From Planctomycetales bacterium (lineage in GTDB: Bacteria > 4484-113 > JAFGCY01), in assembly GCA_022646745.1 (NCBI GenBank), contig CP060262.1:3090001-3122000 (forward strand): a DNA stretch of 32,000 nucleotides, given 5' to 3'. The notes beneath the pieces were generated by a model that did no database searches, had not been told where the DNA came from, and saw nothing but the letters and a program-made list of their open reading frames with translations. The position numbers and the translations under genes are program-made. Of this stretch, positions 1-24,198 are shown in pieces (the stretch's first letter is position 1; each line of letters starts with the position of its first letter).

Positions 1-924
1 GGTCACGCTGACAAGCATGATGTTCATGATGCCGACGCCACCGACCAGAAGCGAGATGAAGGCAACGCCGCCGAAGATCGAGATCAGCACGTTGAGGAAC
101 TGGTTGCCGATCTCGAGGAACTGGTCAGGGCTGATGAACTGGAAGTCGTCATCGGAAGCGTTGCGGATCCTGCGGCGCTGCCGCATGATTGTGGCAACCT
201 CCTCCTTCGCTTCCTTCACGTCCGCGCCATCTGCAAGGTATAGGCTGACCCAGAACACGTCATCATTGCCGATGATGCGCTTCTGCACAGTGCTGACCGG
301 GCTGAGGAAGCCCGTGTCAGGGTTCGGCGCTCCGTCAAAGATGTTCTTGCGCTTCTCGATCAGGCCGATGATCTCGTAATTTGTTCCGTTCAGGCGGACC
401 TGGCTGCCAACGGCATTTTCATAGTCCTCGAACAGGTCGTCCATTATGTCGTGGCCGATGACGACGACGCGGGACGCGCCATTCACTTCGGCCTGGGTGA
501 AGAAGCGGCCCTGTTCGATCTTCTCCGGGATGTCATCCATGTAGTCAGCCGCTACTCCGAGCACATGCCCGTTCGTCGTGTTGTTGCCATGCTTGGCGGT
601 GACTCCCACGTCTATCGCCGGTATCACGTCGCGCACGAGGGTGGTCTGTTCCTCGACGGCGCGCATGTCGTCCATCGTGAACATCTTCATCGGCTGGCGC
701 GCCTGTCCCGGCCGCTTAGGCGCGACAGGTGTCATGAAGAACACGTCACCACCCATCGATGTGATGTTGGCAGTGAACTGGTGCCGCAGGCCCTCACCAA
801 GGCTGACGATGGCGATCACCGCGCCGACTCCGAGGATGATGCCCAGCAGTGTCAGCAGGCTGCGCAGCTTGTTGCGCATCAGCATCCTGTAGCCGATCAC
901 CAGGCTGAGCCAGATCGTCCGCAT
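1..924 (-). CDS. ABC-transporter permease, MacB/FtsX family (3' end cut by window edge)
   Basis: Absent from the ORF track because it is open at the window edge. Minus-strand ATG at 924..922, preceded by AGGAAGG. Translation starts MRTIWLSLVIGYRMLMRNKLRSLLTLLGIILGVGAVIAIVSLG. At the edge it reads ...GGVAFISLLVGGVGIMNIMLVSVT, the hallmark FtsX/MacB transmembrane motif. It begins directly with TM1, so no ATPase domain is fused at the N-terminus. Confidence 0.85.
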   Translation of the reverse strand, partial: MRTIWLSLVIGYRMLMRNKLRSLLTLLGIILGVGAVIAIVSLGEGLRHQFTANITSMGGDVFFMTPVAPKRPGQARQPMKMFTMDDMRAVEEQTTLVRDVIPAIDVGVTAKHGNNTTNGHVLGVAADYMDDIPEKIEQGRFFTQAEVNGASRVVVIGHDIMDDLFEDYENAVGSQVRLNGTNYEIIGLIEKRKNIFDGAPNPDTGFLSPVSTVQKRIIGNDDVFWVSLYLADGADVKEAKEEVATIMRQRRRIRNASDDDFQFISPDQFLEIGNQFLNVLISIFGGVAFISLLVGGVGIMNIMLVSVT

Positions 925-939
925 CAGTCAGTTGCCTTC

Positions 940-2280
940 CTAGTCGAACTTGATGGATGTCTCGAAGCCCCGGACCTTGACGTAGTCTCCTTCCTCAAGG
1001 CCCTCAAGCACGATGATGTCGTAGTAGTCAGTGTCGCCGAGCTTGACCTCAACCTCCTCGGTTGCGGCCTTCTCGCTCGTGATGTCCTCGCCCTCCTTCA
1101 GGCGGAAGACCATGTTCGTGTCCGGCTTCTCACCCGCGCGCGTGGCGCCGAGCGGGATCAGCAGGACATCCTTCTTCACGTCGGCCTCGATCTTCACACT
1201 GGCGGTCATGTTGCCGAGCAGCAGGCCCTCATTGTTGTCAACCTCGATGATCACCACGAAGTTGATCAGACCGCTGCCTGCCTGCACACCCTGCGGGTAG
1301 ATGTTCGTCACCTTGCCGCTGAACTCCTGCTCGCGGAAGGCGTCGACCTGCACGGTGGCAGTCTGGCCGACCTTGATCTTGCCGATGTCGATCTCGTCCA
1401 CGTATGTGCGCACCTTGATGCGGCTCAGGTCGGCGACCTTGATGATCGTGTTGCCTCCGCTGAATGAGGAGTTGATGCTGATCACGCTGTCACCGATGTC
1501 CAGCAGCTTCTCCAGCACGATGCCGCTGATCGGGGAGGCGATTTCGCTGTCCCCGAGCTGCTTGCGTGCTTCCGCCAGCTGGACGCCGGCGGCGTCATAG
1601 CTCAGCTTGGCGAGGCTGATGTTGTTGCTGTTGCTTCCCTCATCGAAGGCGCGCAGGTTCTCCTCAGCGAGGGACAGGGAAGCCTCGCCATTGGCAACAG
1701 CCGTGCGCATGCTGATCAGCTGGTTGCTGGCGTTGTCATATTCCTGCTGGGTGGCCCAGTCCTTCTCGTAGAGCGAGCGAATTCGCTCAAAGCTGTCTAT
1801 CTGTGTCTGGAGGTTGCTTTTGGCGTTGTCCAGGCTGTTGCGGGCATTGGTGAGCTGGGTCTCGAGGCTGGCCCGGGTGGTCTCGCTGTTGGCGTTGCGG
1901 GCCTCGTCATAGCGCAGCTGCGCCTGCTTGAGCACGATCTGCTGCTGGTCAACGACGAGTTGCTGGTTGCGCTGGTCGAGCCGGCAGATCACGTCACCGG
2001 CCTGGATCATGTCACCTTCCTCGACGAAGAACTCCTCGATGCGGCCGGTGGCCTCACTCTTGACTTCGATGTCGGTGACGGGCTCTGTGGTACCGGTGGC
2101 CTCGACGATGATCTTCAGGTCACCACGCCGGGCCTGCTCGAAGTATTCGGTGGATTCCTCTGAGTCCTTCTTTTCACCGCTGCTGATGAAGCCCTTGCCA
2201 TCCTTCTGCTTGATGACGATCGCGGCCGCGACGCCCAGCAGCAAAAGGACGAGCACAATGATTCCAACCCTGCGCCACAT
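940..2280 (-). CDS. HlyD/MacA-family periplasmic adaptor (membrane fusion protein) of an efflux ABC transporter
   Basis: 446-aa ORF with an N-terminal TM anchor (IIVLVLLLLGVAAAIVI). Lipoyl-like motif EVKSEATGRIEEFFVEEGDMIQAGDVICRLD, a long coiled-coil hairpin region and a C-terminal beta-barrel region. GGAGGAAG lies upstream of the ATG. Its stop is 15 nt upstream of the permease start. Confidence 0.85.
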   Translation of the reverse strand: MWRRVGIIVLVLLLLGVAAAIVIKQKDGKGFISSGEKKDSEESTEYFEQARRGDLKIIVEATGTTEPVTDIEVKSEATGRIEEFFVEEGDMIQAGDVICRLDQRNQQLVVDQQQIVLKQAQLRYDEARNANSETTRASLETQLTNARNSLDNAKSNLQTQIDSFERIRSLYEKDWATQQEYDNASNQLISMRTAVANGEASLSLAEENLRAFDEGSNSNNISLAKLSYDAAGVQLAEARKQLGDSEIASPISGIVLEKLLDIGDSVISINSSFSGGNTIIKVADLSRIKVRTYVDEIDIGKIKVGQTATVQVDAFREQEFSGKVTNIYPQGVQAGSGLINFVVIIEVDNNEGLLLGNMTASVKIEADVKKDVLLIPLGATRAGEKPDTNMVFRLKEGEDITSEKAATEEVEVKLGDTDYYDIIVLEGLEEGDYVKVRGFETSIKFD

Positions 2281-3717: not shown

Positions 3718-4494
3718 CTAGATAAGCTTACGTCTGACGAGGATGACCCTGCCGAGGATCTCCACCTCATCCGGGTACTTGAGGACCTGCGGACGGTAGT
3801 TGTGGTTCGCCGGCTGCAGGATAACCGAGTCATTCTCGAAGTACACCTTCTTTACCGTGGTCTGGCGACGGTTAACCTGCACGACGGCGATATCACCGTT
3901 GTTAACCTGGCTGGCCGGACTGACGATCAGGGTGTCCCCGTCAAGGATACCAGCCTCCAGCATGCTGTCACCCTGCACAATCAGGCCGAAGCTGTTCGGG
4001 TCAAACATCATTTCTTCTTCAGAGAGCACCAGCTTCTCAACGTCGGCATGCGCCTCGACCACGTTCGCATCCTTCAGCAGGCCGGCGGGTACGGTGTCAT
4101 AGACGGGCATCGCGCGGCGGGCTGTGGCTACGGCTGAGGAGCCATTGCTGCCGGCAGGCTTGCCCTGAATACCCGAGATCAGCTGCTGCAGCGCATGGGT
4201 GGTGGGATCGTTGCTGCTGGGCTCGCTGGGAGTGGACTTGACGAAATCCTCACTGAGGATGCCGCTTGTCACCACCAGTTCGTCATAGGGGAACTGCAGG
4301 ATCTCACTGAAGCGCTTGAGGATCTTGGGGCTCGGACGTCGCTCACCATTCTCAATACGTGAGAGGTAACTGTTGTTTATTCCTGAGGCATCCGCCAGAT
4401 CAAACTGACTCATGCCACGACGAAGGCGCAGGTTCCTCAGCAGAGTACCGATCTCTGCATAAGGTTTGCCCTCGTTGCTTGTGATCTTGGGCAT
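3718..4494 (-). CDS. LexA-like autocleavable repressor with an XRE-type HTH N-domain and an S24 peptidase C-domain
   Basis: N-terminus LRNLRLRRGMSQFDLADASGINNSYLSRIENGERRPS is an HTH_3/XRE motif. C-terminus has GLIVQGDSMLEAGILDGDTLIV (catalytic Ser) and TTVKKVYFE (catalytic Lys), typical of S24 LexA/CI. AGGAG lies 7 nt before the ATG. Confidence 0.8.
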   Translation of the reverse strand: MPKITSNEGKPYAEIGTLLRNLRLRRGMSQFDLADASGINNSYLSRIENGERRPSPKILKRFSEILQFPYDELVVTSGILSEDFVKSTPSEPSSNDPTTHALQQLISGIQGKPAGSNGSSAVATARRAMPVYDTVPAGLLKDANVVEAHADVEKLVLSEEEMMFDPNSFGLIVQGDSMLEAGILDGDTLIVSPASQVNNGDIAVVQVNRRQTTVKKVYFENDSVILQPANHNYRPQVLKYPDEVEILGRVILVRRKLI

Positions 4495-5631: not shown

Positions 5632-5893
5632 TCAGTCTTCCTCGCCCTGGAGTGAGGAGATTCTAGCACCACCACGTGGCGGATCAGGACTGGTTTGCCA
5701 GCATCTCCTATGCCTCTCCTGACGCATGCTTGCCAGGCTCTGGTCAATAAATTTGACGGAATTTGCCGCAAAACCTTTACAGGCGTTTAGTTTAGTGCTA
5801 ACATCCAAGTATTGCCTGTTGATTACCTGCCCATAGCGGGGGAGGTCCTCGGGACAATCTATTCTATAATTATCAACGAGTTTGGAGCTGGTG

Positions 5894-6952
5894 ATGTCGA
5901 GACAGCAAACAGATGATCGCTTGAAAGCTCTCCAGATGGCTACGGACCAGATCGAAAAGCAGTTCGGCAAGGGTTCGATCATGAAGCTGGGGGACCGTGC
6001 GATACGTATCGAGGATGGTGTGATTCCTTCGGGAAGCCTGTCCCTCGACATTGCGCTGGGTATCGGAGGCATTGCCAGAGGGAGGATCGTTGAGGTCTAT
6101 GGACCTGAATCTTCCGGAAAGACGACACTTGCTATGCACATGATGGTGGAGGCCCAGCGTCTGGGTGGTCGCGTGGCGATCATCGACGCAGAGCACGCCA
6201 TGGATCCTGAATATGCGGCCAGGCTTGGCCTTGATGTGAATGAACTGCTGATCAGCCAGCCCGATACGGGTGAGCAGGCGCTGGAAATCGCCGAGATGCT
6301 CGTCCGCAGCGGTGCCCTGGACATCATCGTAATCGACAGTGTGGCGGCCCTGGTTCCCCGGGCGGAGATTGACGGGGAAATGGGAGACAGCCACATGGGA
6401 CTGCAGGCCCGGCTGATGAGCCAGGCCCTCAGGAAGCTTACAGGAATCACTTCGCGTAGCAAGACCGCGTTGATCTTCATCAACCAGGTACGAGAGAAGA
6501 TCGGAGTGGTGTTCGGCAACCCCGAGACCACCACGGGTGGACGGGCGCTCAAGTTCTACAGCAGCATGCGGATAGAAGTGCGGCGCTCGGACAGCATCAA
6601 GATGGGAACTGATATCGTCGGCAACCAGGTGACGGCCAAGGTCGTCAAGAACAAGCTGGCACCTCCCTTCAAGAAAGCCACCTTCGATATCATCTTCGGC
6701 AGGGGCATATCAAAGTCAGGCGACATTCTCGATCTCGCCGTGGAAAACAAGCTGGTCGCCAAGAGCGGCAGCTGGTACACCATGGGAGATGAGAAGCTCG
6801 GCCAGGGACGTGAGAACGCCAAGCAGTACCTTGAGGAAAATCCCGCACTCCAGAACTCGCTTGAGAACGAGCTGCGAAAGATCCACGGCCTGCCCCAGCT
6901 GGGACAGGGCGATGCCGCGAAGGAAGTTCCCGCGGCTGAGGAAGCATCGTAG
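5894..6952 (+). CDS. recA: Recombinase RecA
   Basis: [23 protein letters not shown], Walker [27 protein letters not shown]. The ATG at 5894 with GGAG 7 nt upstream is preferred over the track's TTG at 5882. Confidence 0.97.
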
Positions 6953-6984
6953 CTCCGAAGCGTAAATAAAAGCTGGAGAAGACG

Positions 6985-8565
6985 ATGAACCCCATTCTGG
7001 CAGCCATTGTCATTGTGGTCGGCGGCCTCGTTGGAGCCGCGATCGGCTACTTCATCAGCGCACGCGCGATGGCACAGCGCGGCGAGCTCGCTGAGAAGAA
7101 GGCCGAGGCACTGCTAAAGGACACACAGGACCGCGCGGACAAGCGCGCATCAGACCTGCTGGCGGAAGCCCGCAAGGATGCTGAACTGATCACCAAGAAG
7201 GCCAATGATCGGGCCAGCGAGAGCATCCAGCGCGCCAAGGAAGGCGACCAAGAGCTCAGGCGCCGCGTGAAGGAGTTCGAGAAGCGCGAGGAACTGCATA
7301 TCAAGGCAGAACAGACCCTCGCCGAGCAGCTCGACAAGGTGGACAAGCGCCGCACCGAACTGGACCGCCGCTCCTCAAACCTCGACAAGCGTGAGCAGAA
7401 GATCGAGGAGCATGAGGACCTGATGCGCATCGAGACCGAGCGCATCGCCAACATGGACCAGGACCAGGCCCGCCGCGAGGTGCTGGCCCGAATTGAGGAT
7501 GAAGCCCGCTACGAATCCGCCAAGATCCGCAAGGAGATGGAGGATGAGGCGCGCAATGAGGCGAATGAGATTGCCCGCAAGCTGATCCTCAAGGCCGTGT
7601 TCCGCTGCGCAGTTGACCACTACAGCGACAGCCTGATCACCACGGTCGAAATCAAGAACGACGAAATGAAGGGCCGCATCATTGGACGTGAAGGCCGCAA
7701 CATCCGCGCGATTGAGGCAGCCACCGGCGTCGACGTGATCATCGATGACACTCCGAACGTGATCATGCTTTCCAGCTTCGACGGCGTGCGCCGCGAGGTG
7801 GCCCGCCAGGCCGTGGAGCGCTTGATCCAGGATGGCCGCATCCATCCAGCCAAGATTGAGGAAGTCGTCAGTGATGCCCAGAAGGCGGTTGACGAGGAGA
7901 TCTGGCGCGCCGGCCAGGAGGCCACCTTCAAGGTCGGTGTGACCGGCGTCAACCCGGAGATGATCAAGGGCCTTGGCAAGCTGAAGTACCGTACCTCCTA
8001 TGGCCAGAATGTGCTGGCGCACTCCATCGAGGTTGCCATCATGTCCGGCGTGATCGCTGCCGAACTCGGCATTCCGGTCAAGAACGCCAAGCGCGGTGGC
8101 CTGTTCCACGACATCGGCAAGGGCGCCGGCCCTGAGATGGAGGGCAGCCACACCGAGGTCGGTGGCATCATGGGCCGCAAGTACGGTGAGAACTCGGTTG
8201 TGATCAACTGCATCGAGGGTCACCACGGTGACGTGGAAATGACCATCGAAGCCTGCGTTGTGCAGGTCGCTGACGCGATTTCCGCCGTCCGTCCGGGTGC
8301 CCGTGGTGAAGCCCTGACCAGCTACATCCAGCGCCTGCGCCAGCTTGAGGACATGGCGATGAGCTTCGCTGGCGTGGAGAAGGTGTTCGCCATCTCGGCC
8401 GGCCGTGAGTTGCGTGTGATGGTCAAGCCCGACATGATGGATGACATCCTGACCTACGACCTCAGCCGCCAGATTGCCAAGCGGATCGAGGAAGAGATGG
8501 AGTATCCGGGCACGGTGAAGGTGACGGTGATCCGCGAGACCCGCGAGATCGCCACCGCACGCTAG
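6985..8565 (+). CDS. rny: Ribonuclease Y
   Basis: 526 aa. N-terminal TM helix, a long charged coiled coil, a KH domain (GRIIGREGRNIRAIEAATGV) and an HD domain (LFHDIGK ... EGHHGD). Confidence 0.95.
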   Translation: MNPILAAIVIVVGGLVGAAIGYFISARAMAQRGELAEKKAEALLKDTQDRADKRASDLLAEARKDAELITKKANDRASESIQRAKEGDQELRRRVKEFEKREELHIKAEQTLAEQLDKVDKRRTELDRRSSNLDKREQKIEEHEDLMRIETERIANMDQDQARREVLARIEDEARYESAKIRKEMEDEARNEANEIARKLILKAVFRCAVDHYSDSLITTVEIKNDEMKGRIIGREGRNIRAIEAATGVDVIIDDTPNVIMLSSFDGVRREVARQAVERLIQDGRIHPAKIEEVVSDAQKAVDEEIWRAGQEATFKVGVTGVNPEMIKGLGKLKYRTSYGQNVLAHSIEVAIMSGVIAAELGIPVKNAKRGGLFHDIGKGAGPEMEGSHTEVGGIMGRKYGENSVVINCIEGHHGDVEMTIEACVVQVADAISAVRPGARGEALTSYIQRLRQLEDMAMSFAGVEKVFAISAGRELRVMVKPDMMDDILTYDLSRQIAKRIEEEMEYPGTVKVTVIRETREIATAR

Positions 8566-15966: not shown

Positions 15967-16039
15967 GGGGGTATAGCTCAGCTGGTAGAGCGCATCGTTC
16001 GCATCGATGAGGCCAGGGGTTCGAATCCCCTTACCTCCA
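15967..16039 (+). tRNA. tRNA-Ala (anticodon CGC)
   Basis: Folded by hand. Acceptor GGGGGTA/TACCTCC with the G3:U70 Ala identity pair. D stem GCTC/GAGC. Anticodon stem CATCG/CGATG with loop TTCGCAT (anticodon CGC). T arm AGGGG-TTCGAAT-CCCCT. Discriminator A. CCA is not encoded. Confidence 0.95.
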
Positions 16040-16108: not shown

Positions 16109-16144
16109 CAGAAAACGCAGAGTCCCCGAACCAGGCGGGGACTC
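16109..16144 (-). terminator. Rho-independent terminator ending the micro-ORF pair
   Basis: On the minus strand: GAGTCCCCG-cctggtt-CGGGGACTC followed by TGCGTTTTCTG, about 34 nt after the stop of the 50-aa ORF. Confidence 0.75.
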
Positions 16145-16177
16145 TGATCTGTTTGCGGCCGGCTGGATGGCCGTGGT

Positions 16178-16330
16178 TCAGAACATGTTAATGAGGGCCA
16201 GTGTAGCGTCATGGATGTAATGACCGACCTGGCCGATGAAGCCGATAACGGCTGCGATGGCGCCGCCGATGGCATTGCCGATGCTTACTCCGAGTTGTAC
16301 GAAACCCTGTTCAAATGCGTCGAAATTCAT
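16178..16330 (-). CDS. Micro-ORF B, 50 aa, hydrophobic glycine-zipper peptide (unannotated)
   Basis: Hand translation: MNFDAFEQGFVQLGVSIGNAIGGAIAAVIGFIGQVGHYIHDATLALINMF. GAGGTG sits 6 nt upstream of the ATG. Below the 60-aa track cutoff. Repeated GxxxG spacing (G14, G18, G22; G30, G33, G36). No Lys or Arg. Confidence 0.7.
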   Translation of the reverse strand: MNFDAFEQGFVQLGVSIGNAIGGAIAAVIGFIGQVGHYIHDATLALINMF

Positions 16331-16379
16331 GATGTTCACCTCTTTGGATTGATATCGGTTGGAATGGACTGTCGCTTGA

Positions 16380-16538
16380 TCAGAACATCAAGGGCCAGCC
16401 AAGGTCACTGAGGGCTGCGGCGTAGTTGAAGTCGTATGCTTCCTGGGCATCGATCTTCGCCGCATCATCCGTAGCAGGACGGATCTCGGCACTGTCGGGA
16501 ATCTCAATCAGTTTCCTGATGTAATCCAGAATGTTCAT
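16380..16538 (-). CDS. Micro-ORF A, 52 aa, acidic soluble-looking peptide (unannotated)
   Basis: Hand translation: MNILDYIRKLIEIPDSAEIRPATDDAAKIDAQEAYDFNYAAALSDLGWPLMF. GAGGTG sits 6 nt upstream of the ATG. The initiation region GAGGTGAAC-N3-ATGAA and the terminal codons ATG TTC TGA are the same as in micro-ORF B. Confidence 0.65.
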   Translation of the reverse strand: MNILDYIRKLIEIPDSAEIRPATDDAAKIDAQEAYDFNYAAALSDLGWPLMF

Positions 16539-16760
16539 GTCGTTCACCTCATTCGTTTATTTGGTTGAGGCTTCCTGATTGCCTGAACCATTCTTGTTAC
16601 CCGCTGGTTCAGGACGATAAACAGTAAACTGTCTAAAATTCGAAATATCTAATTGTAGAGCAACTGCCTGCAATAACTGCATGATTGAAAAGTATCAGGC
16701 AAGGTGCGCCCGGTTTGTGATGGAAAGCGACCTGTAAGTGGTGCAGTGTGCAGAAGAAGT

Positions 16761-17507
16761 CTAGTAACTGATTCCGAAGTAAAGCAGAATGAATGATATT
16801 GAATTGGTCAGCCCATGCGCAATGATGCTGACCCACAGGTTCCGCTTGGACAGGAGATAGGCCGAACCGAGTATCAGTCCGACCAGGCCTGTGCTGATCA
16901 TGCCAGGCAGGTTCTGGTAGGCGTGGATCAGGGCAAACAGGAATGAACTGATGAGCAGGCCGACAATCCAGCCTGTACGTGATTCGTTGAACAGCTTCGA
17001 AATCCTGCCGATCAGGAATCCACGCCAGATCAGTTCCTCCCCGAATCCGGCAGTGGTCCAGGAAACGGCCAGCATCAGGAACAACCTGTTCAGGTCCTGG
17101 TATGCAGTCTGGTGCCTGCTCAGGTCGGGTTCCTGCAGACCGGTCGCGACAAAGATGGCCCCCAGCAGGACTGCCATAAGCTTGATGACTGCCACTACTG
17201 CAATCGCCAGCAGGATGGTGCGGGGCCAGCTGTCCGGTCTTGCCAGTCCCAGTTCAGCCGGCTTGCCACCTTTCAGCAACCATAGGGCGAGGATCACGAG
17301 CATTGCCAGCGGAATGGCAATAAATGCAAGCAGCTCAGGATTAACGCCGGCGGGGAAGGCTATCCCGACGGCTGCCAGAAGTCTTGGCAAAAGGTCTATG
17401 AAATTGGCTGCAAGCACCAAGAGGATGGTGATGCTGATGCCCAGTATGGACTTGTCAAGGAATCTCCCCATGGAGAATCCAGCCCTGTTTGCGCTCAGAC
17501 TGCTCAT
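16761..17507 (-). CDS. CPBP (CAAX protease / bacteriocin-processing, Abi) family intramembrane glutamic metalloprotease
   Basis: All three CPBP motifs are present: EELIWRGFL (EExxxR), FALIHAYQ (FxxxH) and HGLTN (HxxxN). About 7 TM segments. Start set at the ATG 17507 (MSSLSANRAG...) with AGGAG 5 nt upstream. The track's TTG at 17669 lies inside a terminator U-tract. Confidence 0.85.
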   Translation of the reverse strand: MSSLSANRAGFSMGRFLDKSILGISITILLVLAANFIDLLPRLLAAVGIAFPAGVNPELLAFIAIPLAMLVILALWLLKGGKPAELGLARPDSWPRTILLAIAVVAVIKLMAVLLGAIFVATGLQEPDLSRHQTAYQDLNRLFLMLAVSWTTAGFGEELIWRGFLIGRISKLFNESRTGWIVGLLISSFLFALIHAYQNLPGMISTGLVGLILGSAYLLSKRNLWVSIIAHGLTNSISFILLYFGISY

Positions 17508-17656
17508 GTCCACTCCTGTGCCGATCCGGTCTTGCATGTATGGATCAGGCAGCATTCCGGTCCATCTGCTTCTATCTTTCTCCAGGCTTTGGAAGAACTC
17601 GGAATAGTGGGGAGGACGACGCTGGCAGTTTTTCAGTTTCAACGCTTGACTCAACT

Positions 17657-17700
17657 GAGAAAAAAACAAAGCCCCCGTCCCACACGGAGGCTTTTGTCTT
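17657..17700 (-). terminator. Orphan, bidirectional-looking intrinsic terminator between the CPBP gene and yigZ
   Basis: AAAGCCCCCG-tcccaca-CGGAGGCTTT. On the minus strand the single mismatch becomes a G:U pair and is followed by TTGTTTTTTTCTC. On the plus strand it is followed by TTTTGTCTT. No annotated gene ends here on either strand. Confidence 0.55.
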
Positions 17701-17856
17701 GAACTGGTTTTTGATCCCTTACCGGACCATATCCGATACCCTGCAGGACGAGCGCTAAAACCTGCTTATTCAAACATTCCGGGTGAATTCCTGAAGATTG
17801 GAATGAGTCTCCGTTATCGATCCATAAAACGCTGAACCCACTGGGGCTAGAATCAA

Positions 17857-18564: not shown

Positions 18565-21500
18565 CTACTGTTCAAATGCCGTGAACATTCTCATGTTCTG
18601 ATTGACTTCATTTGAGTACAGGATACAAATTTGTCCATTGCGTTCGGTAATAGCCAACTCACCATTGCCCAAGCTGAACAAGTCAGGGAATATGTAAGGA
18701 TCAACTACTTCAATTTCCCATCCATTCACAGTCTGGGATGCCAGTTTCAGTGCAGCATACCCATTCACAATTGATACTCCACTGATGTAAGCAAGTACTG
18801 CCTCTCCATTCGCACGAACCATCGACGCAGCGCTCCGCTTGTTATGGCAATGTTTATGGGAGTAATTTGTGGGTAATTCCTGGCAAGACTCTACGACTGA
18901 CTGTGTTTCTCCGGAAACGGTAAAGGCGGTTGCCACAATACTAGAATCAGAAACAGTGATCCCACTAGTGGATCGCTCGGAAACGAATACTAGCGGTGAG
19001 TATACTGTATCTACATTGCTGGATCCGTCAAAAAGCACTGCACCCAGCCAGCTATTGTCGTTGTAACTGAACTGCAAAGGTATACTGCTAGTTACGACAC
19101 TTGGGGTACTGTAGTCGATCTCACTGTAATACACTCCCAGCGGATTATTGTATCCGGCGCGCAACCCCAGTGGTGTGACAATAAAGTCCTCGTTGTATGC
19201 ATTGTTGAATGGGAATACGCTAATCTGGTGACTAATCCAAGTCCCGAACTGCAGTTGCTCTCTGAGGATGCTGTCGCTAAGTGAATCGACAACTGAAAAG
19301 ATGTGGCTGTCAGGACCTTCAGTTCTTGTAAACCGCGCATACGAGAAATTTCCCTCTGTATGGCTGGCAGGATCTTCCAATATGGATACGTTCCCGTTAA
19401 CATCAATCGTAGCATGTTGATTATAGGCAAGGATGTTCGGAGAAGTGCTGCCTCTGAAATATGTCAGGTAATACTTGTTATCATACATCCCTAGACTGAG
19501 ATCATTCCAATAGTCTGCCTGAGCATCAATGCTGGAAGCCACGTTGAAAGTAGCAAACTGATTACTGTTCGGAGCGGTCTCGCGGAAAATGTTCAACACA
19601 AGTTCTTCAGGTTCATTGTTGTTGTACTCCCACGACACTCCGGCAAACAATCTTCCTTGCTCATCCACACCAATAGCACCATATTCCATATTACCCCACT
19701 TACTTTCCTGTAACAGCTGAAAATCCCACTCTAATCTATCGATAATCACCCTGGAAGGATGCGTATAAACTGTAGGATGATTGGGTAGTATCAATGCACA
19801 ATAGATATCACAAACCCCGTCAGCACCTGCGTAGTTGTCCACGTCAAATGCAATGTTTAAATCGAAATTTGGTGATTCCTGAATTGAAAATGGGACAGGT
19901 TGAGGTGATGTGATCTGCCAAGTTACTCCGTTGGAATCAGTACAGAATAACTGTAATCTATACAAGTTGGTAATACTTGAAAGTAGTCCTGACGGAAGAT
20001 TTCCCTTTAATTGCACTTCGAAATCATCTGTAAAGACTTCCATTTCGCTTGGATTCGCCGGATTCCAGTCTGGTGATACAAGATCCACCCAAGGTAGAGC
20101 ATTGCTCGCATTAATGATTGGAATAACGGTGTCGCCCGGTCCTGCTGGTGAATATGGCAGCGGTACAGGAAGTCCTAAAGCATGCGCGGGTAGATCATTG
20201 CTGCTGCCCCAGTACTTATATCTTCCTGTTTGCAGGAGATGTGTCCGGATGTCCGTTGCCGTTATTCCGGGTGAATAAGCCTGAATCATAGAAACAAGAG
20301 CTGCAACATGTGGAGTAGCAGCTGAAGTTCCATTGAATCCATCATTCGGATCGAATCCCGTTGATGATTCATACAATGGTAATAACAGTGGGATTAGTTT
20401 CTCGTAACCGCCATACGCTGATACTGTCACGGCTCTGGTAAAGTTTCCATAACCAGGTGGGTTAAATGTATCTTCAACCATATAGTTAGAATATGGTGTC
20501 CTGTCATCTGTCCAATCTACAGCTGCAACTGAAATAATTTGATCAGTGTCTACCGCAAAAGCGGCAGGCCATCTGCCATGCACATGCAAATTATTTGCTG
20601 GATCTTCTTCATATATTACGATAGCTTGATCGGGTTTATGTCCCTCGTTTCCCGTTCCGCAAACAAGAACAAAGGAAGGATCCGTTTGAATTGTTGCGAG
20701 CATTAACTCGAAAGGACTGGTAGGGCCATCGTAATAAGCATCCTGAGCCCAACTCATACTGGCTACATATGCATTCGCCCACTGCCTGATACTAAATGCT
20801 CTGAGAGTTGCTTCACAAAGATGATATCCAAGTTCAGTGTTGTATTCTTGATTAGGATCGAATTCTTGTGATTGAGGAATTGTTGGATATGATTTGAACG
20901 GAAAAACTCGACCATATGGAAGCATGCCACAAGTTCCTTGTGGATCTGAATAATCCTGACCCCTGCCAGAGATTATAGCACAACAGTTTGTGCCATGATA
21001 ATCATGATTTCTACCTGCAAAATCATTAAAGTATTCGTAAGGTGTGCATGACCAACCAGAGGGAAAGTCAGGATCCTGAAGGAAAATTCCATAGGCAATA
21101 TCCCAAAAATCTAGGGTGGAGCTATTTGGAGACTCAACGGGCATCCATACAGAAGGCCATTCCTCATTTTGATTCCAGTTTGGCCAGATAAAAGCTGGAT
21201 CCTCAGAGGTAGGAAGATCAGGGTGAGAACCAGGACCTGGATTATCACCACAAACGCCCGTATCAACTACAAACACCCCCGCTGCTATACCGGTCTTATG
21301 TGGGTATGTTACCGGAAAATTCCCATTTGGCCACATGGGTGGGAACCAACATGAATGTAACTGATGGAAATTCATTTGAAATATTGAATATTCTTCCGTA
21401 TGATCCCAGAATTGTGGTCCGTTATCTTCAACATAAATTCCAGTACCTATTGTTCCAATGTCTACAAGCGGATCAGCACTCCTTGGTTCATACGTAGTCG

Positions 21501-22251
21501 GTGACATTGCTACAACTGGATCAATCATCCAAATGAAATCATTATTTTCAGTGAGAATTTCCTTGGCAAGTGTGGTCTTATCAATAGACCCCGATAAGTT
21601 GAACACTGCCCAATTTGAGGACAAATAGTAAACTTCTCGAACAGGCAGAATGTTGTATTTCTTCGATAGATACCTAGTTATGGCAATGTAACTCTTGTTC
21701 TCAACCATCGAATCTGCAGACTGTGTTAACTCTATGTCAGGATAAGTTGATATCATTTCTAAAGTAATTGGAACGGCATATTCTGGTATAACTTGCTCCT
21801 TGGTACCATCGGAAAATGACATTTCCGGTATTGAATCACGCTGAATTCTTCTGCGATTCTCGTTGATCAGATCAAGAGTAAGGTTCGGATGGTAACTGAC
21901 AATAATTGAGTTTGGCAGTGATTTGTTCTCCTTTGTTAGTAAATCACTGCGGTACTCTTCGTCAATTTTGAATCTAGTATCAATTCGCTGAATTTTTTCC
22001 TCAAGCGTCCTCTCAGAAGGTAAACATCCGGTAACATTGGAAATGTTCGATAAATTGTAAACACTTCTTGGCTCAGTTTCTTTTAAAGACTCTAACAAGT
22101 ATCCTGGAATGCTCAGTTTGGTCTCTCGGTCTATTCCATTGAGAATTTCCAAGTTTGTATTGATATCTAACTCTTCACGCCTTCCGCTGCCACAACCAAG
22201 CAGAAAAAGGACAGCAAGAAGAAGCAAATTAAATGCAGCAAGACTTTTCAT
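18565..22251 (-). CDS. Large (1228 aa) lipoprotein with a central S8 (subtilisin-like) serine peptidase domain; AT-rich, probably horizontally acquired
   Basis: Lipobox LFLLGC at aa 15-20. Catalytic signatures in subtilase order: VFVVDTGV (Asp about aa 330), DYHGTNCCAIISG (His about 419), CGTGNEG (oxyanion Asn about 535) and GTSAATPHVAALVSMI (Ser about 643). About 300 aa N-terminal and about 550 aa C-terminal carry no motif I recognise. Sampled 60-nt lines give 37-52% G+C against 57-68% in the flanks. Confidence 0.85.
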   Translation of the reverse strand: MKSLAAFNLLLLAVLFLLGCGSGRREELDINTNLEILNGIDRETKLSIPGYLLESLKETEPRSVYNLSNISNVTGCLPSERTLEEKIQRIDTRFKIDEEYRSDLLTKENKSLPNSIIVSYHPNLTLDLINENRRRIQRDSIPEMSFSDGTKEQVIPEYAVPITLEMISTYPDIELTQSADSMVENKSYIAITRYLSKKYNILPVREVYYLSSNWAVFNLSGSIDKTTLAKEILTENNDFIWMIDPVVAMSPTTYEPRSADPLVDIGTIGTGIYVEDNGPQFWDHTEEYSIFQMNFHQLHSCWFPPMWPNGNFPVTYPHKTGIAAGVFVVDTGVCGDNPGPGSHPDLPTSEDPAFIWPNWNQNEEWPSVWMPVESPNSSTLDFWDIAYGIFLQDPDFPSGWSCTPYEYFNDFAGRNHDYHGTNCCAIISGRGQDYSDPQGTCGMLPYGRVFPFKSYPTIPQSQEFDPNQEYNTELGYHLCEATLRAFSIRQWANAYVASMSWAQDAYYDGPTSPFELMLATIQTDPSFVLVCGTGNEGHKPDQAIVIYEEDPANNLHVHGRWPAAFAVDTDQIISVAAVDWTDDRTPYSNYMVEDTFNPPGYGNFTRAVTVSAYGGYEKLIPLLLPLYESSTGFDPNDGFNGTSAATPHVAALVSMIQAYSPGITATDIRTHLLQTGRYKYWGSSNDLPAHALGLPVPLPYSPAGPGDTVIPIINASNALPWVDLVSPDWNPANPSEMEVFTDDFEVQLKGNLPSGLLSSITNLYRLQLFCTDSNGVTWQITSPQPVPFSIQESPNFDLNIAFDVDNYAGADGVCDIYCALILPNHPTVYTHPSRVIIDRLEWDFQLLQESKWGNMEYGAIGVDEQGRLFAGVSWEYNNNEPEELVLNIFRETAPNSNQFATFNVASSIDAQADYWNDLSLGMYDNKYYLTYFRGSTSPNILAYNQHATIDVNGNVSILEDPASHTEGNFSYARFTRTEGPDSHIFSVVDSLSDSILREQLQFGTWISHQISVFPFNNAYNEDFIVTPLGLRAGYNNPLGVYYSEIDYSTPSVVTSSIPLQFSYNDNSWLGAVLFDGSSNVDTVYSPLVFVSERSTSGITVSDSSIVATAFTVSGETQSVVESCQELPTNYSHKHCHNKRSAASMVRANGEAVLAYISGVSIVNGYAALKLASQTVNGWEIEVVDPYIFPDLFSLGNGELAITERNGQICILYSNEVNQNMRMFTAFEQ

Positions 22252-22524: not shown

Positions 22525-24087
22525 TCACAGGCCCTGGATGCTCTCCACAGTACCGGACTGTTCCACCGCTGCACGGCTGTCACCGGGATAACCCGCCGGG
22601 AAACCCTGTGCCCGCTCAAGGTTCGTGTAGGCCTTGCGGATCTCCGCAATCGTATTCAGGTAGAGCAGGGCAGCAGTCACGCTGCTGTCCAGTGCGTCCT
22701 GGTAGTCAATGAATGGCACGACGCCGGCCGCGTAGCCGACTGCGGCACTGAGCAGGCCCTCCTGGCTCAACTCGAGGTTCTTCTCAGCGACACCAATGGA
22801 TTGGTGAGCAGCCACGAGGCGGTTCCACGAAATGGTGACATCGGACTGGACCTGGGTTTCCAGCTCGAGGATGTCCTGGCTGATTGCCGCGAACTCGGTG
22901 TCGATCACATCCTGCTCAGCCCTGCTGCGGCCACCGTCATGCAGTGTCCAGTTAAGGCGCACGCCGATCTGGTAGTTCATCGAGCCGCCGAAGCTGGTCG
23001 GGTCGGTATAGGCCGCGTTGCCATAGGCCTCGATGATCGGCCGGTTCTCCGCCAGGCTGCGCTCCAGGTCCTTGCTGAACAGCGCGGCATACTGCAGCTG
23101 GATCTCCGGACGGGTCTCCAGCGCTGCCACGATATATTCCTCAAGGTCACCGGGGAACATGCCGGGCAGCAGCATGTCCGCCGTTGCCAGGGTCGGGACG
23201 TACTGCGCGTCGTTCACGCCGAGCAGCGCATGGAAGCGGGTCGCTACATTGCCAAGGTTCGCCCGAGCCTGCACCAGCGCCTGCTGGGCACTCTCGACAC
23301 GCGCTTCGGAACGGATCACATCCAGCCGCGGAACGGTGCCGGCATCGTAGCGCGCGCGGGACTGGCGCAGGAACTCCTCGGACAGCTCGACTTCGTTCTT
23401 GCGGATCTTCACTTCACCGAGCGCCAGGTTGAAATCCCAGTAGGAATCGACGACGGACTGCACCAGCTGCTGCTCCGTCATGTCAACGGTCTGCACCTGG
23501 ATTGCATGCCGGGCCTCAGCGCTGTCGACCAGGTCGCGTGTCAGCCCGAAGTCGTAGATGCGCTGCGTGATGCCAAGCGCGAGGTTGCGGATGTTCTTGC
23601 CCTCGGTGGAGGAGTTGCTGTTCTGGTTGGTGTTAGTGCTCTTTGCTGCGTTGTCAAACTGGAAGTAGGTGTTGGCCGACAGGCTGACCTGAGGACGCAG
23701 CGCCGTCCAGTTCACATCCACCCCCTGGCAGGCGGCCTGCGCAGTCAGTCGTGCACTGTTCAAGGCATGGTTGTTGATGATCGCCATTTCGAGCGCCTCG
23801 CCCAGTGTCAGCTCGGGCAGTGGCTGTTCGTACTCGCTGGCCAGGCTGAGCAGGATGTCTCGCGGGTCCGCCGTTGTGCGCAGCTTGTCAAGCAGGCTGG
23901 AGTCCGGGGTCAGCTCATCAAGCAGGCGCTCGAGCTCGTCCATGTCCGGCTGCACTGCCGGGACTTCCTTGGAGACCGTTTCCTCTGCCTGCGACGGCGT
24001 TGCCAGCAGCAGCACAGCACCGGCTGCGGCGAAGATGCGCAAGCCTGCGCTGCACACGATGCGCGGAAGTGGTGTAATCAGTTTCAT
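22525..24087 (-). CDS. TolC-family outer-membrane efflux channel
   Basis: Signal peptide MKLITPLPRIVCSAGLRIFAAAGAVLLLATPSQA after a GAGGAAGG RBS (start 24087, not the track's 24180). Two-fold OEP repeat architecture with long helical segments (LTLGEALEMAIINNHALNSARL ...). Confidence 0.8.
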   Translation of the reverse strand: MKLITPLPRIVCSAGLRIFAAAGAVLLLATPSQAEETVSKEVPAVQPDMDELERLLDELTPDSSLLDKLRTTADPRDILLSLASEYEQPLPELTLGEALEMAIINNHALNSARLTAQAACQGVDVNWTALRPQVSLSANTYFQFDNAAKSTNTNQNSNSSTEGKNIRNLALGITQRIYDFGLTRDLVDSAEARHAIQVQTVDMTEQQLVQSVVDSYWDFNLALGEVKIRKNEVELSEEFLRQSRARYDAGTVPRLDVIRSEARVESAQQALVQARANLGNVATRFHALLGVNDAQYVPTLATADMLLPGMFPGDLEEYIVAALETRPEIQLQYAALFSKDLERSLAENRPIIEAYGNAAYTDPTSFGGSMNYQIGVRLNWTLHDGGRSRAEQDVIDTEFAAISQDILELETQVQSDVTISWNRLVAAHQSIGVAEKNLELSQEGLLSAAVGYAAGVVPFIDYQDALDSSVTAALLYLNTIAEIRKAYTNLERAQGFPAGYPGDSRAAVEQSGTVESIQGL

Positions 24088-24198
24088 GCCTTCCTCTGTA
24101 ACGGGCCCCTTGGGCCAGGGACTGATTATATACCCACGTGCCGGCGGGCTTGGTTCAAGTTGGCAGCGTGATTGTGGCAATTATCCGGAATCGTTCAA

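Follow-up and report, generated by a model that had tools for sequence, protein, structure and literature searches.

On comparative sequence evidence, two tandem micro-ORFs, A (52 aa) and B (50 aa), on the minus strand of the window (the whole 32 kb stretch of DNA analysed here) are genuine, selected protein-coding genes. They are orphans with no relatives beyond one uncultured wastewater lineage, and are preceded by a near-invariant 5′ leader, which is the most unexpected feature of the locus and was absent from the original prediction. Our preferred reading, with a probability of about 35%, is that B is a membrane-active peptide under translational gating and A its acidic, soluble companion; in this reading we infer a membrane action of B, A–B binding, toxicity and gating by the leader. 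The elements of the gene pair are as follows.

16538..16380, minus strand: gene A, 52-aa ORF from an ATG, acidic (MNILDYIRKL...LGWPLMF)
16550..16544, minus strand: Shine–Dalgarno sequence (SD) of A, GAGGTGA
16330..16178, minus strand: gene B, 50-aa ORF (MNFDAFEQGF...LALINMF)
16342..16336, minus strand: SD of B, GAGGTGA
16146-16108, minus strand: intrinsic terminator closing the A–B unit, an 11-bp stem and a T-tract

The original prediction had proposed both ORFs as unannotated. This is true relative to the 60-aa floor of the ORF list, but not of GenBank, where both are deposited as hypothetical proteins (A, MCB1220932.1 and UNM07647.1; B, MCB1220931.1 and UNM07646.1) from MAGs that the depositors labelled ‘bacterium’ and ‘Planctomycetales bacterium’; both exact peptides have already been called in > 20 public contigs. 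Contigs L014 and L018 carry a diverged pair, A′ and B′, with gene order and tRNA-Ala/DUF502/NadE location unchanged; A′ (44 aa) is 57% identical to A, and B′ (50 aa) 48% identical to B. Nei–Gojobori dN/dS ratios were 0.29 for A and 0.25 for B, close to the 0.27 of their DUF502 neighbour; dS was 1.2–1.5 for the cassette and 1.0 for DUF502. Frameshifts or stops in orthologous loci had been named as evidence against the ORFs; in L014/L018 the A and B frames proved open, an outcome in the genes’ favour. The window species has two haplotypes at the cassette. At strain level, B shows three SNPs, all synonymous, and its protein is identical across > 20 contigs; nonsynonymous changes in A are confined to its linker, and variants of the terminator alter the loop alone.

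That the locus is a non-coding RNA with incidental, untranslated frames is barely credible to us. The leader is indeed better conserved than the ORFs, as this explanation would have it, but both frames stay open with order and length kept and 48–57% amino acid identity, dN/dS is 0.25–0.29 at dS above 1, each alternative frame is interrupted by stops in at least one lineage, and the SDs are strong and correctly spaced. The case illustrates that comparative genomics by itself can validate micro-ORFs too short for common annotation floors.

Matching starts and ends had been reported for the two ORFs, and we recovered both. The initiation regions are tGAGGTGAACgacATGAAc (A) and aGAGGTGAACatcATGAAt (B), which a repeat search returned as a 25-nt direct repeat of 80% identity. 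They share the 9-mer GAGGTGAAC, located 5 nt 5′ of each ATG and occurring twice in the 32 kb window (∼0.26 occurrences expected); the only GAGGTGAAC-N3-ATGAA sites in the window are the two of A and B. The last three codons, ATG TTC TGA, are likewise the same in both genes. Paralogy of A and B as the source of the matching starts and ends was rejected, with an hhalign probability of 0.1%. Since the two genes are not paralogous, the likeness of their initiation regions most plausibly reflects two very strong Shine–Dalgarno sites and not a duplication, and the shared 9-mer is an extended Shine–Dalgarno sequence; rpsD alone is comparable to A and B in SD strength within the window. All four peptides (A, B, A′ and B′) terminate in [L/M]-F, an end with a chance of ∼0.5% per peptide by our own estimate from general residue frequencies.

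A terminator had been predicted to close the pair at 16109-16144, and is present with slightly shifted boundaries. Its stem (16146..16118, minus strand) comprises 11 bp, eight of them G-C pairs, and is followed by CGTTTTCTGC; in L014/L018 a different hairpin and T-run occupy its place. The tRNA-Ala(CGC) gene (15967-16039) is convergent with A–B and has a terminator of its own. A and B as a single terminated unit are supported. We also noted that tRNA-Ala(CGC) is overlaid by a spurious 37–38-aa CDS call (15967-16039 in the window, 8139-8255 in L001 and 5147-5263 in L003).

Upstream of A, conservation sets in abruptly ∼120 nt from the gene, and strains of the L001 type carry unrelated DNA 5′ of this onset. 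The conserved region contains the following elements.

16613..16655, minus strand: conserved promoter-proximal block, T.GATATTTCGA..TTAGACA.TT..CTGTTTAT
16524..16591, minus strand: near-invariant leader core, extending through codon 5 of A
16590..16562, minus strand: predicted hairpin 1, invariant, with loop AAUCAGGAA (RNAalifold consensus)
16554..16529, minus strand: predicted hairpin 2, enclosing the SD and AUG of A, GAAUG pairing with CAUUC of codons 3–4
16544..16591, minus strand: candidate uORF MVQAIRKPQPNKRMR (MVQAIRKPQP...), hypothetical, with its stop within the SD of A

The promoter-proximal block is 93% identical between the window and L001 and 77% identical between the window and L014, and TTTCGA-N17-GTTTAT within it is a possible promoter, put forward from the sequence. 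The 68-nt leader, single-copy in the window, is identical at 65 of 68 positions between the window and L014/L018; in the same comparison, identity elsewhere is 62–63% for A/B coding DNA, ∼55% at third-codon positions and 40–62% in other non-coding segments. L014 and L018 differ from one another in promoter and coding DNA, and at no position in the leader. If regulatory, these 68 nt would constitute a compact new translational control element, one that stayed nearly unchanged while synonymous sites of the adjacent genes became saturated.

The pairing predicted in hairpin 2 would explain why codons 1–5 of A are identical even at synonymous sites. An alternative pairing, of GCCUCA with the SD sequence UGAGGU, appears in the single-sequence MFE fold. 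The leader fold was not significantly more stable than shuffled sequences (z = -1.4) and displays no covariation, its columns being invariant; Rfam searches with leader and cassette returned no known RNA family, only sub-threshold terminator look-alikes. The reading frame of the candidate uORF is uninterrupted in each of the four haplotypes, with 12 codons in the L001 type and 15 in the others, and its ATG follows an invariant GGGTAA at a distance of 5 nt.

A candidate sRNA of ∼100 nt is located at 17660-17775 (minus strand), divergent from yigZ, and ends in a strong intrinsic terminator (17694..17668) for which that strand offers no upstream gene to serve. It is kept in all five related species, including those devoid of both the pair and the CPBP gene described below (L001, 5460-5580; L015, ∼6945-7060; L016, ∼6942-7060; L017, ∼2640-2760), and its stem exhibits one compensatory G-C to A-U change. 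It has no Rfam match, and public gene calls render it as spurious 40–65-aa ORFs. The leader was rejected as a target of this sRNA, the duplex energy being not better than 18% of shuffles and 62% of genomic windows.

Directly upstream of the pair in the window is a gene for a CPBP/Rce1-like intramembrane protease (16761-17669, minus strand). Its longest ORF (TTG start, 302 aa) begins within the terminator hairpin of the candidate sRNA, and a 264-aa call with its start at 17555 is more plausible. To compare the site across relatives we used a DUF502-based synteny search, which retrieved three related MAG species (L015, L016 and L017). In L015 and L016, tRNA-Ala is followed directly by yigZ, with neither the pair nor CPBP; in L017, the order is tRNA-Ala, CPBP and yigZ, again without the pair. 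The cassette is missing at the same site in three of five related species, and is thus accessory and dispensable. Strains of the L001 type, which belong to the window species, have the pair and lack CPBP. As all four presence/absence combinations occur (both in the window, pair only in L001, CPBP only in L017, neither in L015/L016), obligatory coupling of the pair to the CPBP protease was rejected; the protease varies independently among strains as well as among species and is outside the A–B unit.

The pair had further been thought to have backbone-like G+C and to be native, not imported. The first claim is not quite right: the whole cassette is 50.6% G+C (A, 52.8%; B, 52.3%) against 57.2% for the window and 58–61% for flanking core genes, and GC3 is 0.63–0.66 in the cassette genes versus 0.75–0.78 in the flanking core genes. 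The second stood in part. The DUF502 identity matrix resolved two subclades, one of the window, L001 and L015 and the other of L014, L016 and L017, each with carriers and non-carriers. The cassette is not a recent import, because it occupies the same locus in the two subclades and has a dS similar to that of DUF502; against the claim, it is accessory. An insertion signature was not found, flanking direct repeats and att-like duplications being absent. Because the dS of the cassette matches that of its neighbour and both subclades mix carriers with non-carriers, the simplest history would be that of an old resident cassette, native but dispensable, that has been lost repeatedly.

The tRNA-Ala/yigZ interval as a whole is a multi-event variable hotspot in which the pair, CPBP, GH2 and S8/S15 genes all vary. 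Strains of the L001 type have an insertion between B and tRNA-Ala that encodes a 594-aa GH2 glycoside hydrolase (6325-8109 in L001/L002/L004). The window carries a 1228-aa S8 subtilase gene (18565-22251, minus strand) that is itself a low-GC island (39–48% G+C, 43% for the gene; GC3 0.38; flanks ∼60% G+C), and L001-type strains and related species have an S15/PepX peptidase gene in its stead between the OEP gene and yigZ. The S8 subtilase looks like a strain-specific gene replacement.

These proteases bear on the idea that A and B are processed or modified precursors (RiPP or signalling) whose [L/M]-F ends, or the DFNYAAALSDLG motif of A, are recognised by the CPBP or S8 enzyme. We regard this as quite improbable. 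The [L/M]-F end in four of four peptides, the layout of A, whose variable linker leads into a conserved ‘core-like’ motif at the C terminus, and the presence of CPBP and S8 protease genes nearby in the window would all suit it. However, genes for a RiPP maturase, a radical-SAM enzyme, a cyclodehydratase or an exporter are lacking from the 32 kb window; strains of the L001 type do without CPBP, although their B is identical; and the low-GC S8 gene (43%) stands in for the S15 peptidase in a strain-specific manner.

Peptide A was described as acidic, with 10 Asp/Glu against four Lys/Arg, and our counts are the same; its pI is 4.05, its charge -6.5, and it has one Gly. At its N terminus is an amphipathic helix, followed by an acidic linker that varies and tolerates an 8-residue indel, and then by an invariant C-terminal motif, QEAxDFNYAAALSDLGxPxxF. 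AF2 modelled helix 3–11, a disordered stretch and helix 25–45 at low confidence (pLDDT 60), the latter predicted helix bearing the invariant motif. A has no transmembrane segment (Hessa sum +12.5).

Peptide B has no Lys or Arg, eight Gly, a pI of 4.5 and a charge of -3.3, and AF2 predicted one continuous helix of 47 residues (3–49; pLDDT 86.7). It had been credited with a hydrophobic glycine-zipper core free of Lys and Arg. The lack of basic residues is borne out, and the small-residue stripe of the zipper (G14, G18, G22, A26 and G30) is conserved in B′, but hydrophobicity is not: the core of B′ contains N23, C24 and E27 (D27 in L018), the best Kyte–Doolittle 19-residue window falls from 1.82 in B to 1.23 in B′, and the position-independent Hessa sum rises from +3.1 to +6.7 kcal/mol. 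By these predictions B is a marginal, not a classical, transmembrane segment. A polar/small stripe (Q12, S16, N19, G/N23, G30, Q/G34, H/Q37 and D41) runs opposite a hydrophobic face (F10, I17, I21, V/A28, V/I35 and I/L39), and the modelled profile would suit an amphipathic helix that oligomerises and acts on the membrane better than it would suit a mere anchor. B could instead be a soluble helical-bundle protein, because its hydrophobicity is marginal and the homologue keeps an acidic E/D27 in mid-helix. A light-harvesting-type peptide pair was rejected, since the two His of B are not conserved in the homologue.

As originally proposed, neither peptide can be placed in a known family, and this held after exhaustive profile and sequence searches. 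As families, they have no match in Pfam, NCBIfam, PHROGs, PADLOC or PDB sequences: Pfam gave zero matches at E ≤ 1, NCBIfam gave a single one, to ssl2009 (E = 0.24, far below its cut-off), and no Pfam/NCBIfam profile of Hol-Tox or other catalogued small glycine-zipper membrane peptides matched. A word-indexed search of 5.8 billion protein clusters recovered A and B themselves and the L014-type homologues, and nothing else. An exhaustive HMMER search of 1.84 billion representative proteins with a B profile yielded no true extra homologue; its sole extra match, P0011 (E = 1e-6), is spurious, being a TPR-repeat STAND-type protein whose repeats mimic ‘GAAAGLGHY’. Comparison with 50,697 phage and 72,556 plasmid records by tblastn gave no match to A or B, and a phage, plasmid or defence origin was rejected as tblastn, PHROG and PADLOC were all empty. 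Neither peptide patterns nor the leader sequence gave any match when scanned against GTDB genomes, JGI metagenomes and IMG/VR. Foldseek with the B model found no match, as expected of a single helix, and PDB similarities of B are limited to transmembrane helices. With two known lineages and no cultured host, the practical reach of the cassette is limited for now.

How might such a pair act? In the preferred reading, A and B would form a self-contained bicistronic cassette with its own promoter block, a structured leader, two strong RBSs and a terminator. The amphipathic helix of B would self-associate via its glycine/small-residue stripe in or on the cytoplasmic membrane and perturb it, by ion leak or depolarisation. 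A, soluble, acidic, partly disordered and translated first from the same mRNA, would bind B via the invariant C-terminal motif and keep it harmless or escort it, making the pair a miniature toxin/antidote-like module. Translation of the operon would be gated by the leader, in which the SD and AUG of A are predicted to lie in a hairpin that the short uORF may open.

We count for this model that the pair is inherited together, its order and locus being kept in two lineages. For B as an oligomerising, membrane-active helix speak the AF2 model, the conserved stripe with its opposing hydrophobic face, the Kyte–Doolittle maximum of 1.82 and the PDB similarities to transmembrane helices; glycine zippers drive the oligomerisation of membrane toxins (PMC5380434; PMC12744356). 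For A as a soluble partner speak its charge, its lack of a transmembrane segment and a disordered, variable linker flanked by two conserved ends, and for tight control the leader identity and the predicted hairpin over the SD and AUG. Antidotes are usually encoded upstream, and A is the upstream gene. Toxin/antidote and competition modules are typically accessory and found at variable sites next to tRNA genes, as the pair is. Against a toxin–antitoxin interpretation, neither A nor B has a PADLOC or toxin–antitoxin family match. It is doubtful that A–B is the founding example of a protein–protein ‘micro toxin–antidote’ module, with partners of ≤ 52 residues gated by a new, nucleotide-invariant uORF/hairpin leader. 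If B is indeed held by the 52-residue A, they would rank among the smallest protein–protein toxin/antidote or peptide/chaperone pairs known, and their source would be an uncultured wastewater lineage that has hardly been studied.

Type I toxins such as TisB, Hok and ZorO are small membrane peptides, expressed monocistronically and countered by antisense or divergent RNA antitoxins. B is like them in being a hydrophobic helix of < 60 aa behind a long 5′ leader that is conserved and predicted to mask the RBS; unlike in type I systems, a conserved protein gene, A, precedes it. No type I RNA antitoxin was found in Rfam above threshold, and the candidate sRNA has no special complementarity to the leader. 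Classical type II antitoxins carry a DNA-binding domain. A has none, no Pfam, NCBIfam or PADLOC domain is present in either peptide, and the likeness to type II systems is in gene order alone (acidic protein first). By analogy only, the closest mechanistic precedent for A–B would be EsxX–ExiAB of Staphylococcus aureus, in which the soluble ExiA/ExiB sequester a membrane-depolarising glycine-zipper toxin domain in the cytoplasm (PMC12744356). The proposed logic would be the same, with a zipper helix, toxic from the cytoplasmic side, restrained by the soluble product of an adjacent gene. However, the toxin there, EsxX, is a large LXG/T7SS effector and its partners ExiA/ExiB are folded proteins, whereas A and B have ≤ 52 aa, no secretion system and no homology to EsxX–ExiAB.

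A benign role is possible, if tentative: B, as a small membrane protein or helical-bundle protein, would modulate a larger membrane complex or stress response with A as its co-factor, and neither would be toxic. Many bacterial small membrane proteins of 30–60 aa modulate transporters or sensors. The very strong, rpsD-like SDs suggest abundant, tolerated expression, and the long residence at one locus, with a dS like that of the neighbouring gene, also agrees with this. On the other hand, loss in three of five related species and the lack of a conserved partner gene nearby speak against a core-complex role, and the invariance of the leader suggests unusually tight control.

The main rival to the preferred reading is antagonism by an exported two-peptide, bacteriocin/microcin-like system, in which A and B together, or B alone, are released and kill competing bacteria as the zipper helix enters their membranes, and a neighbouring CPBP/Abi-type protease, in some strains, confers immunity; we consider this unlikely. 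In its favour, two adjacent small peptide genes form one operon, B has a GxxxG zipper, and presence varies by strain and species. Glycine-zipper toxins of Gram-negative bacteria, CdzC/D among them, lack a cationic character (PMC5380434). Bacteriocin loci and Cdz-like islands frequently include Abi/CAAX proteases (PMC5380434), and a CPBP/Rce1-like gene is directly upstream of A–B; but CPBP and the pair assort independently.

The Cdz-like bacteriocins (CdzC/CdzD of Caulobacter) are peptides of 60–151 aa with a predicted secretion leader that terminates in G[G/A/S], with one or two glycine zippers uninterrupted by proline or charged residues, and a T1SS within ∼10 kb; CaaX-type proteases are often nearby and not required (PMC5380434). 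A–B resembles them in its small adjacent peptide genes, an extended zipper in a non-cationic hydrophobic peptide, a patchy, island-like distribution and a CaaX-type (CPBP) protease that is nearby without being required. In contrast, B (50 aa) and A (52 aa, or 44 in L014) fall below 60–151 aa and share no sequence similarity with them, and A has no zipper. B has neither a double-glycine leader nor any other, and lacks a G[G/A/S] cleavage motif or 15–25-aa leader sequence: its zipper begins at G14, directly after L13 (A13 in B′), so that residues 13–14 read LG, or AG in the homologue. The zipper stretch G14...G36 is uninterrupted in the window B, and contains C24 and E27/D27 in the L014/L018 homologues.

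Class IIb two-peptide and leaderless two-peptide bacteriocins (e.g. enterocin L50/MR10) come from Firmicutes, with transporter and immunity genes; their peptides are cationic with a pI above 10, are mutually similar and adopt a saposin-like fold (PMC6131525). A–B shares with these classes tandem-encoded peptides of ∼45–50 aa and GxxxG in B, and, as in the leaderless class, no leader is recognisable in either sequence. Unlike class IIb peptides they have no GG leader and no dedicated C39-ABC transporter in the 32 kb window, and, instead of being cationic with GxxxG motifs in both peptides, are strongly anionic (A, -6.5; B, -3.3), A with a single Gly. Unlike the leaderless peptides, they have pI values of 4.05 and 4.52, are unrelated to each other (hhalign 0.1%) and gave no homology to the subgroup in database searches; B is predicted as one straight helix, not a saposin-like fold. 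The cassette represents a new family of very narrow distribution, like two-peptide glycine-zipper systems in kind and a member of none.

According to Pfam annotation of the whole window, the surroundings of the pair contain no machinery for bacteriocins, RiPPs or secretion, the remainder being housekeeping genes. Within 10 kb there is no C39/ABC exporter or T1SS, which argues against export; the nearest candidates are only a MacB/HlyD-type pump 14 kb off and the OEP. This MacAB-like efflux pump lies at the window edge (1-2280, minus strand), with an HlyD-family fusion protein (940-2280) followed by a MacB/FtsX-type permease that extends past the window end. Neither the pump nor the TolC-like OEP gene (22525-24180) showed a link to the peptides. 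SOS/LexA control of the cassette was rejected, as its promoter shares no operator with the lexA-like or recA upstream regions. The LexA-like repressor (HTH_3 + Peptidase_S24) is encoded at 3718-4494 (minus strand) and recA at 5882-6952 (plus strand), with lgt between them, and a sigma-70-like promoter, TTTACA-N17-TAACAT, is located upstream of recA.
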